A DNA stretch of 64,000 nt from a virus (IMGVR_UViG_3300035698_019437:32001-96000); one strand, 5' to 3'; shown: positions 716 to 12,425, counted from the stretch's first letter. The notes: generated from the letters alone by a model not told the origin. Numbers and translations are program-made.

Positions 716-1333
716 ATGAATTGGTATAAGCAAGCACAACCTATCAAGCAACCGTGGGAAATGACTCGTAGAGAGTTCATGGATTACCACAAAACAGGCC
801 ACATATCAGAAGGTACATACGATATGTACAGCACTCGCGAGGGTATTGACTGGTTGGGGCCAAAAGAAAAACAACCAATGGTTCATAGTAAAAAGACTTT
901 TGGAGATGTTGAAGTAGAGTTCCGGCAGACCGGCAAAAAAAACAAATACGTACGCACAGATGAAAACAATGAAATAGTACGAGACCCAGCAGGTACCGCA
1001 TTATATTTAACCGATGAAGAAATAGTTGAAAGGGGCTATTCGCCTTACGACACAGGTATTACAGCATACGATTCAGGAGGCCCGATTGGTTGGGTTGCCA
1101 ATAGTTTCGGCGTACCCGAAGTTTTTGTTATCAAAGAACGACAACGACTAGGTATCGGTACATATCTTTTATCTGAGTGGATGAAGCTTCGTAAACCAGA
1201 CCAACATTTCGGTCAAATGACAACTTCTGGCGAGAATATGTCTCTCTCTTATCACAAGCAACAAATTGCCGATGCTATTCGTGAAGGTAAATCCGTTCCT
1301 GATGAAGTGTTAAATGAGTATCCAGAGTTGTGA
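716..1333 (+). CDS. MNWYK-leader protein with GNAT-like acetyltransferase domain
   Basis: MNWYKQAQ start; VFVIKERQRLGIGTYLL matches GNAT motif A (Q/RxxGxG). Confidence 0.65.
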   Translation: MNWYKQAQPIKQPWEMTRREFMDYHKTGHISEGTYDMYSTREGIDWLGPKEKQPMVHSKKTFGDVEVEFRQTGKKNKYVRTDENNEIVRDPAGTALYLTDEEIVERGYSPYDTGITAYDSGGPIGWVANSFGVPEVFVIKERQRLGIGTYLLSEWMKLRKPDQHFGQMTTSGENMSLSYHKQQIADAIREGKSVPDEVLNEYPEL

Positions 1334-1387
1334 AATCTTGTTCGTTACAGGATGCCTTTTCTAGTGAAAAACCATTTCTTTAAATCG

Positions 1388-1415
1388 TTGATATTTGGTA
1401 TTTCTGCGTTATAAT
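1388..1415 (+). promoter_or_regulatory. sigma70-type promoter
   Basis: TTGATA-N16-TATAAT, 6 nt before ATG 1422. Confidence 0.55.
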
Positions 1416-1421
1416 GTGACT

Positions 1422-1769
1422 ATGAGTGGCGATAGAAATGTATTTGAATTTCCTTCTGAGGAGATAATATACTTCAGCTTCATTTTTGATGATGTGAAAT
1501 ATAGCTGTCATGCTTGTTATTGCAACTATGCATCTAGGTATGCCATTTATACCAAGTCTTTAATTAAGGGTATACATGTTCGTGTATCAGATGTCGAGTG
1601 GGTTCCCGCATATAATGGTTGCAAAGACAGATATTTTAGATGCGTCGATACTCATGGATATGTTTTTCCTGCATTTACGAGTTTAGACGACTTTTTTGCT
1701 ACTATCACAAGAACGATGAGGAAGCTTCTTGGGCTTCATCTTTTTAGTTGGAAAGAGATGACACTATGA
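1422..1769 (+). CDS. FxWxx[MI] array paralog 3
   Basis: ATG at 1422; FPSEEIIYFSF; ends FSWKEMTL. Confidence 0.8.
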   Translation: MSGDRNVFEFPSEEIIYFSFIFDDVKYSCHACYCNYASRYAIYTKSLIKGIHVRVSDVEWVPAYNGCKDRYFRCVDTHGYVFPAFTSLDDFFATITRTMRKLLGLHLFSWKEMTL

Positions 1770-2080
1770 ATAAAGACATATTACCTCCGCGTACATTCCA
1801 TGTGATTTGTAGAAATACTACATATAGATTCTTTTTTTATACTATAGAAAATAAAATGATGTACGGGATTCATACGACAAATCTTCCTATAGACCCTATA
1901 ATGGAAGCAGAGCTTTACATCCATAAAGATTTTAAGAAGAATTTTGATGTTCACATGAACGTACATAGAGCTTACTGTAATTTAGGACCAAGGTTTTTTG
2001 CAGACTTATTTGAAAGGGCGTATAAAACTATCAAATTCATTATGTCGAATAGTTTTCGTTGGGAAGAAATTACAATATGA
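1766..2080 (+). CDS. FxWxx[MI] array paralog 4
   Basis: ATGA overlap; LPPRTFHV; ends FRWEEITI. Confidence 0.8.
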   Translation: MNKDILPPRTFHVICRNTTYRFFFYTIENKMMYGIHTTNLPIDPIMEAELYIHKDFKKNFDVHMNVHRAYCNLGPRFFADLFERAYKTIKFIMSNSFRWEEITI

Positions 2081-2397
2081 CTCATAGACATGAAATGGAA
2101 ATAAGATTACCGGAGCCTATAGAGATTTTTGGATTTGGGTTAGACGGTAATAATTTCATGGCAATATTGGAGAAGACTACAGAAGAATATTGGTTATATC
2201 GTGTTCATCTTGGTAATAAACATGTTTTTTCTTTTATGTTCCGTCTTTACTATTTAAAATTTGCTTTCTTCCATAACGAGGTACATAAATGTGCTGCAAT
2301 GCATTTAGATTATAGGAAGATTGCAGGAGCGGCTGACAAAAGCTTTGACAAATTTATTCTTTCCCAGATTTTTGTTTGGCAAGAGATACAGATATGA
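2077..2397 (+). CDS. FxWxx[MI] array paralog 5
   Basis: ATGA overlap; LPEPIEIFGF; ends FVWQEIQI. Confidence 0.8.
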   Translation: MTHRHEMEIRLPEPIEIFGFGLDGNNFMAILEKTTEEYWLYRVHLGNKHVFSFMFRLYYLKFAFFHNEVHKCAAMHLDYRKIAGAADKSFDKFILSQIFVWQEIQI

Positions 2398-2681
2398 TAC
2401 CAGAACTTCCGGAACAATTTGAATTGTTTTTTGAAGAAAAGTTTTTTAGCTTCACCATGAAGCGTCAATGGACGAAGAACATACAGTTCCCTGTGATTTA
2501 TTTTATAAATAGCATTCCTTTTAACAGTAGCAAAAGCTATGTATCATCTTTACATCTCGATGTCCTTCACGGAGATTTATGTTTTAGTATTGCGAATAAC
2601 AGTAACATGGGTGAAGAGGCATGCATCTTGTTAGAAAAAATGAATGGTTTATGGTTTAAGTGGAGTTGGATGACGCGATGA
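2394..2681 (+). CDS. FxWxx[MI] array paralog 6
   Basis: ATGA overlap; LPEQFELF; ends FKWSWMTR. Confidence 0.8.
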   Translation: MIPELPEQFELFFEEKFFSFTMKRQWTKNIQFPVIYFINSIPFNSSKSYVSSLHLDVLHGDLCFSIANNSNMGEEACILLEKMNGLWFKWSWMTR

Positions 2682-10543: not shown

Positions 10544-10612
10544 ATGTCTTATCTCCTTTTGGGTTAGTTTCATGGAAGGTGCGACAGGGTTTCGATCTTG
10601 TCGCACTTTTTT
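10544..10612 (+). ncRNA. candidate small RNA with an anti-SD seed (UAUCUCCUUUU)
   Basis: Bounded by a promoter motif and an intrinsic terminator; contains only a 7-codon ORF. Confidence 0.35.
10579..10612 (+). terminator. Rho-independent terminator
   Basis: GTGCGACAGGGT-TTCG-ATCTTGTCGCAC stem-loop followed by TTTTTT. Confidence 0.85.
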
Positions 10613-10625
10613 ATGTACAAAATAA

Positions 10626-10650
10626 AGGAGAGAACCGTATAAAGCCGAAC
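10626..10650 (+). promoter_or_regulatory. AGG-N18-GAAC promoter-like motif
   Basis: Immediately after the terminator; exact spacing. Confidence 0.55.
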
Positions 10651-10724
10651 TTTATTATAAGGAAGTCTACAAACAGGCAGTAATATGGAAACTATAGAAC
10701 CAGAAGAACCTGAGCCTAAAACGT

Positions 10725-10919
10725 ATGAAAAGACTAGCCACAATTTGTTTAATGGCAGCGACGTTTTTCTGCCCTCTTGGATACGATATTATGTTCAAAA
10801 GCATAATGGTGTTGACAGGTGGTTACTGGATTACTGTTGCAGTTTTCTATTGCCTATCTGCTTTGTTCTTTGGACTTTTTTTCTGGTTGTCACGTTTATC
10901 TAAAAAGGCGAAATCATGA
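10725..10919 (+). CDS. small membrane protein (2 predicted TM helices)
   Basis: Hydrophobic segments, basic C-tail, ATGA overlap with 10916; preferred over the overlapping 10685 ORF. Confidence 0.55.
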   Translation: MKRLATICLMAATFFCPLGYDIMFKSIMVLTGGYWITVAVFYCLSALFFGLFFWLSRLSKKAKS

Positions 10920-11857
10920 AAAAGTATTTTGATCTTATAAAAGAAGCCGCCCCAAATCTTATTGGAAGAAATATAAATCCTCAAACAGGAAGACGACAGC
11001 AACTGCAACAAAGAGTTGCCCCTGGAACACAACAGACAGTCGTTAATAGACCTCCACCCGGCGAGATACCTCTCGCGCCCGCAGGCGATCCTATACCGAC
11101 TAACGCAGTACCTACTGTTAATTCTGGAATCCAATCAAGAGAAGAGTCTATGGAACAAGCTGCCGCTGGTTGGGCCGGTGGAACATTAAACCCAGCAGCA
11201 TCGCCAGCAACAGCCGCGCCAGCAACAGCCGCGCCAGCAGCAGTTGCACCTACCGATACTTCTGCTCCTATTGCAACTCCTACTACTCCGGTTGCAGGAA
11301 CTACTGGTACAGAATCTGGTGCTTCGTTTGCACAACAATTTAACAATTCTTTGACTCAAGCACAACAACAAGCTTCTAACGGGATAACTCAATTAACAGG
11401 TGCTCTTGGTCAATTATCATCGATGGGTGGTAACAGAACTATAAATAAAAAAGTATCAAAAGTAAATAAATTAGTGCAGCAACTAAAACAACGAATAGAT
11501 AATCTACAATCTCTTGGAGTTCCTATTCCAGCGGCGGGTATCGATTCTCGCATGGCAGGTAACTACTTCGATCTTATTAAAAATGCTAATGATATGTCAC
11601 CAGAACAGATGCAAGAATTTCAAGATTTTCAGCAGTTTCAAGAATTAAGACAAGAGCGTCGTCAACGACAACGGCCTCCAACAGCAAATCCTATGCAATA
11701 TCTTGAAAAAACCATAAATGGTGGTTTGTTAGAACTACAAAAATCTATGGATATTTTAAATAGAGCCGCTGCAACAAATCCCAATGTCTTAAAAGAAGTT
11801 AGAGAAGTAGGTAAACTTATAGGCCGGATAAGAATGATACTAGTAGGTCAAGGCTAA
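10916..11857 (+). CDS. low-complexity P/A/T/Q-rich protein with a duplicated YFDLIKxA motif (putative internal head protein)
   Basis: MKKYFDLIKEA at the start and NYFDLIKNA at ~11561. Confidence 0.75.
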   Translation: MKKYFDLIKEAAPNLIGRNINPQTGRRQQLQQRVAPGTQQTVVNRPPPGEIPLAPAGDPIPTNAVPTVNSGIQSREESMEQAAAGWAGGTLNPAASPATAAPATAAPAAVAPTDTSAPIATPTTPVAGTTGTESGASFAQQFNNSLTQAQQQASNGITQLTGALGQLSSMGGNRTINKKVSKVNKLVQQLKQRIDNLQSLGVPIPAAGIDSRMAGNYFDLIKNANDMSPEQMQEFQDFQQFQELRQERRQRQRPPTANPMQYLEKTINGGLLELQKSMDILNRAAATNPNVLKEVREVGKLIGRIRMILVGQG

Positions 11858-11858
11858 T

Positions 11859-12425
11859 ATGAGTTGGTATAAACAAGCACAACAAAGCGAAAAAGCATTT
11901 TTTGCAAAGAATAAGGCGGTAGATTATAATGCGTCTCCGTCTCCTGATCAAGTGGGTCAATACTATACTATGTTTGATGTACAGCGATACGTTATGGATA
12001 GCTATAGTATGAAAGTTGCAATAAGCAAAACGAAAACCAAATATGCTGTTTCTTTTTTGTGTAATCACGACTTCCTCGGTTCTGTAGCTTGGTCTGCTTA
12101 CTGGGCTTATGATGTAGATCAGTTCAAAGAAGCTGTAACTACGTATGAAAAAGTAAAAGTAGGTGTTGGAGAAGTTGTAACTAAATTTGTTGAAGAGGAG
12201 ATACCGACTTCTATTTTTTGGCCTTTTATGAGACATAAGCTTTATAAAATTGACAACATGGCTCGTTCGAAGAAAAATATCCCCTATGTTAATTATACCA
12301 GAGATTTGGAATATAGTCCCGATTGGCGAGAAAATATCTATGGAACCAGATATCCAACATATGAAGAAAAAAGTTACGCACAGTACCTGAATAGCGGTAA
12401 ATGCTATAACGAAGCCCGAAAGTAG
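11859..12425 (+). CDS. MSWYKQAQ-leader hypothetical protein
   Basis: Leader almost identical to that of 716. Confidence 0.8.
   Translation: MSWYKQAQQSEKAFFAKNKAVDYNASPSPDQVGQYYTMFDVQRYVMDSYSMKVAISKTKTKYAVSFLCNHDFLGSVAWSAYWAYDVDQFKEAVTTYEKVKVGVGEVVTKFVEEEIPTSIFWPFMRHKLYKIDNMARSKKNIPYVNYTRDLEYSPDWRENIYGTRYPTYEEKSYAQYLNSGKCYNEARK

Follow-up and report, generated by a model that had tools for sequence, protein, structure and literature searches.

Head-maturation proteases are active inside proheads, and in phage T4 the prohead protease gp21 removes a short N-terminal capsid-targeting sequence (CTS) from the internal proteins IPI-III and from Alt. The proteases of phiKZ and SPN3US cut after Glu (S/A/G-x-E), and their substrates carry long propeptides. 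In Staphylococcus phage 80alpha, the capsid and scaffold proteins reportedly share an L27-like N-terminal motif that is cut by the host protease Prp, an account attributed to Wall et al. 2015. T-even internal-protein loci are hypervariable and encode diverse defence-related proteins with only the capsid-targeting sequence in common (PMC3012670). Large phages such as phiKZ and SPN3US pack many proteins in the head, where a short sequence code marks the sites of cleavage (PMC5694885, PMC7411985, PMC10052503). Polyvalent proteins have been proposed as capsid-packed effectors delivered with the DNA, in a text where the terms 'N-terminal motif' and 'leader' are absent (Iyer et al. 2017, PMC5512222).

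Here we analysed a stretch of viral DNA of 64,000 nucleotides (the window) from a 147-kb record, a 29%-complete fragment whose clade is related to Bacillus phage G; related genomes are denoted G001, G002 and so on. Within 716-12425, seven gene starts on the + strand read M-[N/S]-W-[Y/L]-[K/R/H]-x-[A/S]-[Q/S/G], and we found no paper describing this tag. The features are as follows.

716..1333, + strand: tagged gene 1, MNWYKQAQ, 205 aa; conserved N-terminal region, weak GNAT-like C-terminus
6080..6463, + strand: tagged gene 2, MNWLKKIK (variant tag MNWLKKIKLG), 127 aa; 'GH..W..H.D..GR.D..S' family
6743..7399, + strand: tagged gene 3, MNWYHTAS, 218 aa; HELEH at residue 110, zincin-like, virus-only family
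7399..7791, + strand: tagged gene 4, MNWYRYSQ, 130 aa; paralogue of 6080
7791..8126, + strand: untagged acidic ORF, 111 aa, pI 4.6; in the same run of overlapping genes
8123..10090, + strand: tagged gene 5, MNWYRTSQ, 655 aa; three-module fusion
9809-9829, + strand: internal tag copy NWYKISQ within ORF 8123-10090, at the junction with the C-terminal 94 residues of the 655-aa product
10077..10514, + strand: tagged gene 6, MNWYKHSG, 145 aa; 2H phosphoesterase (2H-SAK)
10916..11857, + strand: untagged, 313 aa; basic and of low complexity, coiled-coil-like; within the cluster
11859..12425, + strand: tagged gene 7, MSWYKQAQ, 188 aa; body with a conserved counterpart in G005 at the equivalent position, upstream of neck genes
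19548..21496, + strand: context, head-tail adaptor (phrog_195) and neck-module protein; ties the cluster to the virion module

All seven starts and the internal copy had been listed in the initial annotation and were recovered at these positions. The window contained 5 occurrences of the pattern ATGAAYTGGTAY, where 0.08 were expected, and 0/100 shuffles reached 5. A six-frame scan covering all 147 kb of the record, along the lines of the whole-genome scan proposed in the initial annotation, placed the motif at real ORF starts in the 716-12425 cluster only. Information content fell to the background level beyond residue 8. A variant form, N-W-Y-K-x-I-K-x-A, also occurred, and gene 6080 has the version MNW[YL]KxIKx[AG]. 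Tag copies were strictly N-terminal in 68/78 cases; internal and C-terminal copies were also seen, the internal ones at module junctions in fused proteins, and such copies are compatible with a cleavage or binding motif, not with a strictly N-terminal signal. In gene 8123 the modules comprise a Cys-pair module (1-283), a region of about 290-545 in common with cultured jumbo phages, and a small C-terminal module. In G005, G013 and G017 each of the three has a gene of its own, beginning with the tag or a tag variant, and the free-standing G013 homologue of the module after the internal copy begins MNWYKFSQQISLF.

To compare the bodies, the first 10 residues were trimmed; the only related pair was then 6080/7399 (E 6e-11), and all other pairs gave E > 0.07. 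The earlier description of the bodies as mostly unrelated holds for most of them, and the tag is portable across unrelated bodies. Genes 6080 and 7399 are paralogues in one large family, so not every body is unrelated. A profile search with this family returned 609 proteins at E<=1e-3, and 133 of the best 150 began with the tag. Gene 716 is located inside an array of small paralogues and has tagged homologues with 53% identity in G015 and 45% in G005. The GNAT assignment of the initial annotation is weak for this protein (E 0.003) but stronger for its tagged homologues, with 2e-7 as the best value among the 3/67 tagged proteins matched by GNAT families. For gene 6743, the zincin assignment of the initial annotation has the HELEH motif as its sole basis, and the product had no sequence match in Pfam, PHROG or PDB; the ESM Atlas placed it in virus-only clusters, where the closest named entries, LPD23 (0.88) and SprT-like (0.86), are leads only. 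The 2H phosphoesterase assignment of gene 10077 proved solid, with a match to PF22547 above the curated cut-off (51.6 bits, cut-off 27; E 1.5e-13; residues 28-144). The same protein matched phrog_12204 (7e-6), the PHROG of the phage G Acb1-like gp116, and this PHROG is tied to Acb1 in the phage G paper (PMC12484599). The G005 homologue of gene 11859 has an additional HEKAH module separating the tag from the body. As for the untagged genes of the cluster, ORF 7791..8126 had no homologue among related loci, and the protein at 10916..11857 contains YFDLIK[E/N]A twice, one copy (LIKNAN) fitting the putative cleavage motif; at a guess, it could be a scaffold-like or internal protein. A single body was found in 6/7 tagged proteins, gene 8123-10090 being the sole three-module fusion. 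The tagged proteins do not have the basic character of T4 internal proteins.

The codons of the tag were then considered. In the window, A/S7 is encoded by GCA, GCG, AGC, TCT and TCG, five codons from three codon families; the replacements N>S, K>R and Y>F (MNWFK, 11 of the best 150 family proteins) were found, and synonymous variation was present at every tag site. Given the different Ala/Ser codon families, the Y>F and K>R exchanges and the synonymous variation at all sites, the constraint on the tag acts at the protein level. A nucleotide initiation signal lacking synonymous variation, the counter-explanation raised in the initial annotation, is thus not what the sites display. A broader version, in which ATGAATTGGTATAAA serves translation initiation or coupling or acts as a promoter-like element and the peptide is a by-product, could draw on the similarity of TGgTATAAa to an extended -10 box, on tag codon choice that differs from gene bodies (AAC 50% vs 20%, GCA 74% vs 35%, TAT 92% vs 78%), and on the stops that ATGAATTGGTATAAA gives in both other frames, so that upstream genes finish ..NELV. 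However, besides the synonymous variation, Y>F destroys TATAAA and retains an aromatic residue, internal in-frame copies preserve the peptide without a start codon, and A-rich codon bias would be expected near any start codon; we regard this explanation as extremely improbable. The AlphaFold2 model of gene 7399 (123-sequence alignment) had pLDDT 52-56 for residues 1-20 and 83-96 for the domain blocks, with one exception at 74. Since these first residues score low, the Pfam 2H domain of gene 10077 starts at residue 28 and the tag of a G6PD is simply an added extension, the tag lies outside the folded domain. We infer that it is a portable eight-residue address peptide followed by a flexible linker of about 10-15 residues.

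The distribution of the tag was surveyed in viruses and cells. IMG/VR gave 47 tag matches, commonly in huge-phage contigs, and exact MNWY starts numbered 100 against 1 control match (22 other contigs). Three complete relatives carried 7, 12 and 14 tags, in several scattered clusters. In 596 Gb of cellular genomes there were 12 matches, near chance by a rough estimate, and real tagged ORFs lay only on 2 short contigs, phage-like DNA apparently placed in bacterial bins. The tag is therefore restricted to viruses. None of the cultured phages checked had the tag, including cultured members of the tag-bearing clade, and phage G itself has no MNWYK. These data bear on a degron reading, in which a host unfoldase such as ClpXP reads the N-terminal peptide and clears early enzymes on schedule. 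ClpX N-motif 1 is said to run polar, hydrophobic, hydrophobic, basic, hydrophobic (ascribed to Flynn et al. 2003), and N-W-Y-K-x, in which tag position 6 is variable, fits it loosely, by sequence alone, at an N-terminal location. However, W-Y-K-x-A-Q is conserved far more tightly than known degrons, the motif is unused in cellular genomes, a ClpP gene was not found in five related records, and internal copies sit at module junctions. A degron is very unlikely.

We next consider the linkage of the locus to head genes. The capsid and protease genes are absent from the 147-kb record, so all head-gene evidence comes from relatives (42-45% identity). G001, G002, G004 and G024, all of which have a phage-G-type capsid gene, encode proteins with 42-45% identity to the 298-aa product of 20600-21496, and by sequence the proteins of 19548..21496 place the record in a phage-G-like clade. 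The capsid protein of this clade is a homologue of phage G gp27 (PDB 6WKK, 1.6e-95; 55% identical to gp27), whose capsid structure is solved, and it is 72-75% identical among tag-bearing genomes. In G003/G019, G004 and G013, tagged genes start at a distance of 130 nt to 1.6 kb from the capsid gene, sharing its strand in G003/G019 and G004 but not in G013; in G001, G004 and G024, tagged genes occupy the interval from capsid to neck genes. Here, as in the syntenic G005, the neck module comes just after the cluster, whose content is highly plastic, with 7 tagged genes here against about 15 in G005 and few in common. G002 is an exception, with tags 66 kb from the capsid gene.

In relatives, a gp19-type head protease (phrog_18299, 1e-11; Pfam S77 was not detected) forms the N-terminus of a polyprotein of 1,850-2,000 aa, encoded directly upstream of the decoration and capsid genes. 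In 6/7 genomes the polyprotein starts MAMYKRAT, MAIYKTAT, MAFYKTAT, MTMYKKSS, MSFMKKAK or MGFTKRAS, resembling the tag as M-x-hydrophobic-Y-K-x-A-T; no other untagged gene among 342 gene calls had a look-alike start. The [KR]x[AS] sites that the initial annotation wanted sought in head proteins are enriched in this polyprotein: each polyprotein had 10-12 occurrences of hydrophobic-[K/R]-x-[A/S]-[S/T/Q/G/N], compared with 2.3-2.8 in shuffles (0/500 reached the observed number), and hydrophobic-K-x-A-[S/T/G/Q] was 4-5 fold over shuffles. Eight large tail and other proteins of this genome had no such enrichment. The proposed cleavage after x[A/S] fits these relatives, as a code deduced from motif enrichment only. 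Such a code could instead serve processing alone, with the phage protease trimming or activating tagged proteins or freeing fused modules, and neither head loading nor injection. The tag does contain the motif enriched in the polyprotein, and internal copies do lie at junctions between fused modules. However, losing seven N-terminal residues from a flexible tail has no obvious benefit by itself, a cleavage site would need neither the N-W part nor so strict a placement at the N-terminus (68/78), and the action of head-maturation proteases within proheads also argues against processing alone, which appears improbable.

The tagged bodies include ART-PolyVal (3e-18), GNAT, ParB-like (a weak ParB_N match), SLT, Acb1, Tad6, 2H, cREC and PNK-like kinases. 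Odd cargoes for a capsid were also present: G6PD, proteins as long as 900-1,235 aa, and SLT proteins that include a membrane segment. In T4, Acb1-like and RNA-repair enzymes are synthesized after infection and are not known to be packaged; the corresponding cargo here is counted against a packaging reading. Many cargoes being RNA-repair or anti-signalling enzymes with cytoplasmic action, the tag might instead dock them to a non-capsid hub, a phage or host protein that collects enzymes, for example into an RNA-repair or counter-defence complex or at a site of the actin-like protein, whose gene is nearby (PF25216, 1e-60). The scattering of tag clusters in complete genomes would agree with this. 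Yet no conserved untagged partner was found in the clusters, the two candidate readers among the tagged families are not universal (GNAT is missing from G001-G004 and the GH family from G002), and the likeness to the polyprotein N-terminus is left unexplained, which makes a hub unlikely. The tagged bodies are drawn from a repertoire proposed or known as virion-delivered or counter-defence (PMC5512222).

Taken together, the peptide probably labels a range of enzymes for loading into the phage head, because it copies the start and the likely cut sites of the head-maturation protease of relatives. By analogy, its most likely mode of action is that of the T4 capsid-targeting sequence, with docking to the prohead and then cleavage after Ala7, given the polyprotein likeness, the motif enrichment and the frequent position of tagged genes after the capsid gene. 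We consider it somewhat better than an even chance that N-W-Y-K-x-[A/S]-Q is a head-cargo address peptide that mimics the protease polyprotein and directs docking, trimming and exit with the DNA. The tag would imitate the N-terminus and the repeated hydrophobic-K-x-A|[S/T/G/Q] sites of this protease/scaffold polyprotein. Late in infection, tagged proteins would dock through the peptide to the prohead interior, the partner being the protease or whatever recruits the N-terminus of the polyprotein; once enclosed they would be trimmed after Ala/Ser7, and they would exit with the DNA at the next infection. We infer binding, cleavage, packaging and injection of the tagged proteins in this sense, and delivery with the DNA, as in T4, would be the outcome. 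If so, the phage would bring ready-made counter-defence and host-modifying enzymes, including the 2H phosphodiesterase and GNAT-like, zincin-like and other proteins. The initial annotation had called NWY[KR]x[AS] a packaging tag; the tag has turned out to be real, portable, protein-level and virus-specific, it resembles the head-protease polyprotein of relatives and is linked to capsid or neck genes in several, and its packaging function is still presumptive. More tentatively, and with somewhat less than even odds, it may be a clade-wide eight-residue code, read by the capsid-maturation machinery, that loads an exchangeable set of 7 to >15 enzymes per capsid for co-injection with the DNA (anti-CBASS/anti-Thoeris types, ADP-ribosyltransferases, acetyltransferases and RNA-repair enzymes), possibly with a parallel second code, MK[I/V]I[K/R]TA. 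The virion cargo of these phages would then be readable directly from sequence.

Among known systems, encapsulins likewise use a conserved short peptide at one terminus, by which unrelated enzymes dock within an HK97-fold shell whose gene is a neighbour; in G019, G003, G004 and G013, tagged genes adjoin the gene of the HK97-fold capsid protein. Most encapsulin cargo peptides are C-terminal; their sequence is different, and they are not known to be cleaved. A dedicated non-viral encapsulin shell was ruled out, the adjoining gene encoding a real phage capsid protein, the gp27 homologue, accompanied by a decoration protein and head protease. Polyvalent proteins share the repertoire of ART-PolyVal, GNAT, ParB-like and zincin-like peptidase domains, with LPD23 as a weak lead, but they join 2 to 15 domains in one giant polypeptide, whereas here mostly separate small genes each have their own tag; with 6/7 proteins single-bodied, the Iyer-type architecture was not observed. 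phiKZ and SPN3US differ in their long propeptides, as against one common eight-residue tag, and in their capsid protein family. In 80alpha, too, a short common N-terminal peptide of phage head proteins is a protease site, although what the 80alpha motif imitates is a host ribosomal protein and the protease belongs to the host, and MNWYK is without a cellular counterpart. The T4 system differs in sequence (MKTYQEFIAE against MNWYKxAQ) and in cleavage, which follows Glu in L/I-x-E there and presumably Ala/Ser with Lys at P3 here; unlike gp21, the protease here is phage G gp19-like and fused to a polyprotein of about 1,900 aa, and the tag is far more conserved across distant genomes. In both, a short N-terminal peptide is carried by otherwise unrelated proteins, and the plastic tagged locus resembles the T-even hypervariable internal-protein loci. 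The T4-type tie of a variable locus to head or virion genes was seen here and in G005, G003, G019, G004, G013, G001 and G024, though not in G002. Like the T4 peptide, the tag may carry the cleavage motif of the head protease, and the putative payload includes ADP-ribosyltransferases, as does that of T4 with Alt.

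The seven tagged starts and the single internal copy of the octapeptide M-N-W-Y-K-x-A-Q all lay where the initial annotation had placed them. Scanning all 147,268 bp of the record in six frames located real gene starts with the motif only in window 716-12425, and ATGAAYTGGTAY, expected 0.08 times in the window, occurred there 5 times. The tagged genes, named here by their starts, were as follows.

716, + strand, weak GNAT-like protein
6080, + strand, member of the 'GH..W..H.D..GR.D..S' family (GH family)
6743, + strand, HELEH zincin-like protein
7399, + strand, second GH family member
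8123-10090, + strand, 655-aa fusion of three modules, with the internal copy NWYKISQ at 9809-9829
10077, + strand, 2H phosphoesterase (PF22547, 1.5e-13) sharing a PHROG with the Acb1-like gp116 of phage G
11859, + strand, body without assigned function

The bodies had been described as mostly unrelated, which held for every pair except 6080 and 7399, related at E 6e-11 after removal of the first ten residues. No close relative turned up among 50,697 GenBank phage records when the cluster and several tagged proteins were searched by megablast and tblastn; a word-indexed protein search matched only the query itself, and the search for the family of gene 11859 added no members beyond the syntenic 107-kb fragment G005. 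The middle module of 8123-10090 was the sole part matching cultured jumbo phages, and the three such phages scanned all lacked the tag. Basic charge, considered as a hallmark of internal proteins, was ruled out for the tagged set, which is not basic. Gene 716 lies among small paralogues arrayed over window 14-5832 and genome 2402-10471, which have a common C-terminal end, F-x-W-x-x-[M/I]-x-x; its Trp codon is at least 13 nt upstream of the next start, by our reckoning too far for a typical ribosome-binding site.

Information content was high over residues 1-8 and fell to background from residue 9; this set was picked by its residue 1-8 pattern, so the sharp edge is meaningful and the height is not. 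A variant, MNWYKxIKxA, is present in gene 6080 and elsewhere within the same protein family. The motif occurred 78 times in 556 kb of related DNA, with 68 copies placed directly after the initiator Met and several others after GTG or TTG starts; copies that were truly internal were few and lay at fused-module junctions or near a C-terminus. The three modules of the 655-aa protein are separate genes in G005 and two other relatives (G013 and G017), starting with the tag or a variant, and its second module junction keeps NWYKISQ. On G6PD, 2H, kinase and ART bodies the tag is a plain N-terminal extension. An AlphaFold2 model of gene 7399 built with 123 homologues gave pLDDT 83-96 for most of the domain but only 52-56 for residues 1-20; the tag is thus carried by a flexible tail, even where almost all members have it. 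Such an extension might instead serve as a degron, a reading to which we give very little credence.

A subset of tags is followed by QQ[L/I]SLF or QxxLF (window 9809-9850; stretch L019 7643; G005 stretch L056 4925 and 12646). QLSLF is a textbook beta-clamp-binding pentapeptide; the carrier proteins are heterogeneous, and we treated the resemblance as chance.

Conservation acted on the peptide rather than on the DNA. Position 7 is encoded in the window by GCA, GCG, AGC, TCT and TCG, and replacements among 67 tagged genes were conservative in protein (N>S, K>R, A>S). In 11 of 150 family representatives Y was replaced by F (MNWFK), so that the TATAAA string was lost and the aromatic residue kept. 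The initial annotation had named a nucleotide-level initiation signal without synonymous variation as the competing account; every tag codon varied synonymously across the 67 genes, and we regard a DNA-level signal as scarcely credible. A secondary codon bias (AAC, TAT, GCA, CAA) is present, which we read as ordinary start-proximal bias and not as the cause of conservation. No timing signal emerged from scans for promoters, terminators and intergenic k-mers, and a search for tRNAs was negative. Read in the third frame, ATGAATTGGTATAA encodes N-E-L-V-stop, and because of this overlap the 655-aa protein and four G005 genes end in ..ELV. The genes overlapping a tagged start and ending in ..NELV, ..YELV or ..KELV do so at these positions.

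Window 10077-10090, end of the 655-aa protein
G005 (L056) 7648-7661
G005 (L056) 8504-8517
G005 (L056) 9773-9786
G005 (L056) 12267-12280

The common C-terminus is a coding by-product and no second tag.

In IMG/VR a 24-nt degenerate pattern matched 47 times on 36 stretches, a single contig often holding several copies. Across 596 Gb of bacterial and archaeal genomes it matched 12 times, near our rough chance estimate, and real tagged ORFs there were confined to two short, apparently mis-binned phage contigs. On a further 22 contigs exact MNWY starts numbered 100, compared with a single control match, and three complete related genomes of 461-548 kb (G001, G002, G004) carried 7, 12 and 14 tags. 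On G017, 14 MNWY starts fall within 7.3 kb (69505-76819) at ~370-450 nt spacing, an array of tandem small tagged genes, several of the GH family. No tag was found at gene starts in the cultured phages Atu_ph07, RsoM2USA and G or in the uncultured LR756504, and a literature search for the MNWYK motif found no paper mentioning it.

The 6080/7399 family had 609 members at E<=1e-3 among 1.84 billion representatives. Those looked up were all metagenomic, and 133 of the best 150 had the tagged N-terminus, in a search tilted toward tagged members by a profile that contained the tag. The family occurs in fused and tandem forms of 2-4 modules. Foldseek with its model returned only weak gelsolin/ADF-like rows (E >= 0.03, TM 0.3-0.4), which we counted as no match; a gelsolin-like identity was dropped, leaving no solved structural match. 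An actin-like protein is also encoded at 18427-19542 (PF25216, 1e-60), probably a coincidence. As universal readers of the tag, both the tagged GNAT (absent from G001-G004) and the GH family (absent from G002, its own tag undocked in the model) were rejected.

CheckV rated the record 29% complete, and no capsid, terminase or head-protease gene was detectable in it. Pfam models for terminase, HK97 capsid, T4 gp23 and S77/S78/ClpP proteases had no match in the record or its complete relatives, and searches did not establish a portal identity for an 873-aa ORF upstream of the neck genes. The tag cluster follows tail-fibre-like genes and lies just upstream of the actin-like gene, a head-tail adaptor, tail genes and giant virion proteins. 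At the same place G005 has an unbroken run of ~15 tagged genes, with the same neck and tail genes (30-72% identity), and only three cargo bodies in common with the window; the locus thus keeps its position while its content varies. In G005 the cluster ends with a 389-aa ORF (L056 13210-14379) that by eye looks like a TnpB/IS605-type transposon protein, followed by a signal-peptide protein and a 983-aa fibre-like protein. The contig begins with a GC-rich stretch (genome 1-60) unlike the 36% GC genome, which may be an assembly end artefact.

A neck-module protein at 20600-21496 was 42-45% identical to proteins of G001, G002, G004 and G024, and by this similarity the record belongs to their clade, which has a phage-G-type capsid. 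Head genes of the relatives were reached only through a near-cut-off PF05065 match in G019 and G003, followed by protein searches. The 287-aa capsid protein of these two matched PDB 6WKK (phage G gp27) at E 1.6e-95, with 55% identity to phage G. The three complete genomes with tags, as well as G013, G015 and G024, all have it, at 72-75% identity. Other proteins shared by these genomes are 30-50% identical; the shell is unusually conserved and may be what reads the conserved tag. On the downstream side of the capsid gene, tagged genes begin at 130 nt in G019 and G003 (phosphoribosyltransferase-like), at 1.6 kb in G004 and at 4-16 kb in G015; in G013 the nearest lies 1.4 kb away on the opposite strand. 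Tags lie between capsid and neck genes in G001, G004 and G024. G002 has no exact tag closer than 66 kb to its capsid gene, and the complete genomes have scattered clusters too. The association is strong but not absolute.

The head-maturation protease of phage G is gp19 (PMC12484599). In seven genomes gp19 matched residues ~60-200 of a 1,850-2,000-aa protein encoded immediately upstream of the genes for decoration and capsid proteins, and PHROG 18299 'head maturation protease' agreed (1e-11 on the gp19-like polyprotein). In three of them the polyprotein, with the protease in its first ~200 residues, lies as follows.

G004 (L076) 12200-17806
G019 (L077) 11266-16836
G013 (L078) 430-6426

The other ~1,700 unannotated residues could be scaffold or internal head proteins. 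In 6 of 7 genomes the polyprotein starts with MAMYKRAT, MAIYKTAT, MAFYKTAT, MTMYKKSS, MSFMKKAK or MGFTKRAS, tracking M-N-W-Y-K-x-A-Q position by position. Among 342 crude gene calls, M-x-hydrophobic-[Y/F/M/T]-K-x-[A/S] starts were found, besides 25 NWY-tagged genes, only in those loci's two polyproteins. About 30 residues further on stands QIKTAS, LIKTAS, MIKTAS or MVKIAS, mirroring a second tag class (MKIIKTA, MKIVKTAG, MRVIRTAG) that is mixed in with the MNWYK genes following the capsid gene in G019 and G015. This class, MK[I/V/L][I/V][K/R][T/K][A/S], was seen in that setting on L076-L079 (G004, G019, G013, G015); in the present record only window 62690 (MKVIQTKS) resembles it.

The motif hydrophobic-[K/R]-x-[A/S]-[S/T/Q/G/N] had 10, 12 and 10 copies in three polyproteins against 2.3-2.8 in shuffles (none of 500 reached the observed number), or 5.0-6.5 per 1,000 residues against 1.4 in this genome's pooled proteins. 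The suggested cleavage after x[AS] would fit this enrichment in the relatives' protease polyproteins; eight large tail and other proteins of this genome showed no enrichment. From these sequence patterns we infer that the motif is the protease's cleavage code, with Ala/Ser at P1, Lys at P3 and a hydrophobic residue at P4. It is present in the internal copy and in five of the seven window tags, those of 6080 and 6743 being the exceptions to the strict pattern. Near the phage G capsid gene (L066) we noted MKRLIKKAS (gp38), KRLIKKS (gp17) and PVKIAG (gp19), so the rule may be testable in that cultured phage.

By analogy, we lean slightly towards the tag being a T4-like capsid-targeting signal, its cargo docked, cut and exported with the DNA. 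A shared cleavage code might also mean processing without packaging, which we consider improbable, and docking of tagged proteins to a hub outside the capsid has, in our judgement, a small chance of being right; the rest falls to explanations outside those considered. If the tag is a capsid-targeting signal, the peptide would be recognised in the way that the polyprotein's N-terminus or cleavage sites are and so dock cargo in the prohead, be cut after residue 7, and let the cargo leave with the DNA.

Pfam families found among the 67 tagged proteins were GNAT, cREC_REC, ART-PolyVal, AAA_33 kinases, DUF5661, G6PD, Tad6, 2H-SAK, Acb1, PolyA_pol, SLT, methyltransferase and Zeta-toxin-like kinase, with a weak ParB_N match. 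This payload overlaps known counter-defence enzymes and also the domain repertoire of polyvalent proteins, for which Iyer et al. (PMC5512222) proposed packing into capsids and delivery together with the DNA. Two tagged SLT lytic transglycosylases (L014 5325-5957; L032 2056-2670) have a membrane-like hydrophobic segment right after the tag; they may be cell-wall enzymes that are ejected, or signal-anchored endolysins.

To our knowledge, phage G is the only cultured megaphage. If the capsid-targeting reading is true, the packaged and injected protein arsenal of a megaphage group without cultured member would be readable from sequence alone, a very short natural tag would be available for loading foreign proteins into large capsids, and the rule hydrophobic-K-x-A↓S/T/G/Q, which may extend to phage G, could be tested. 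The T4 logic of diverse defence cargo with one shared address would then have arisen anew, built on another peptide, another protease and another capsid lineage. Known systems of the same kind are the capsid-targeting sequence of T4 with gp21 (PMC3012670), the ejection proteins of giant phages and the loading peptides of encapsulins; the present one differs from them in its peptide, its presumed cut site, its protease-polyprotein arrangement and its phage-G-like capsid lineage.
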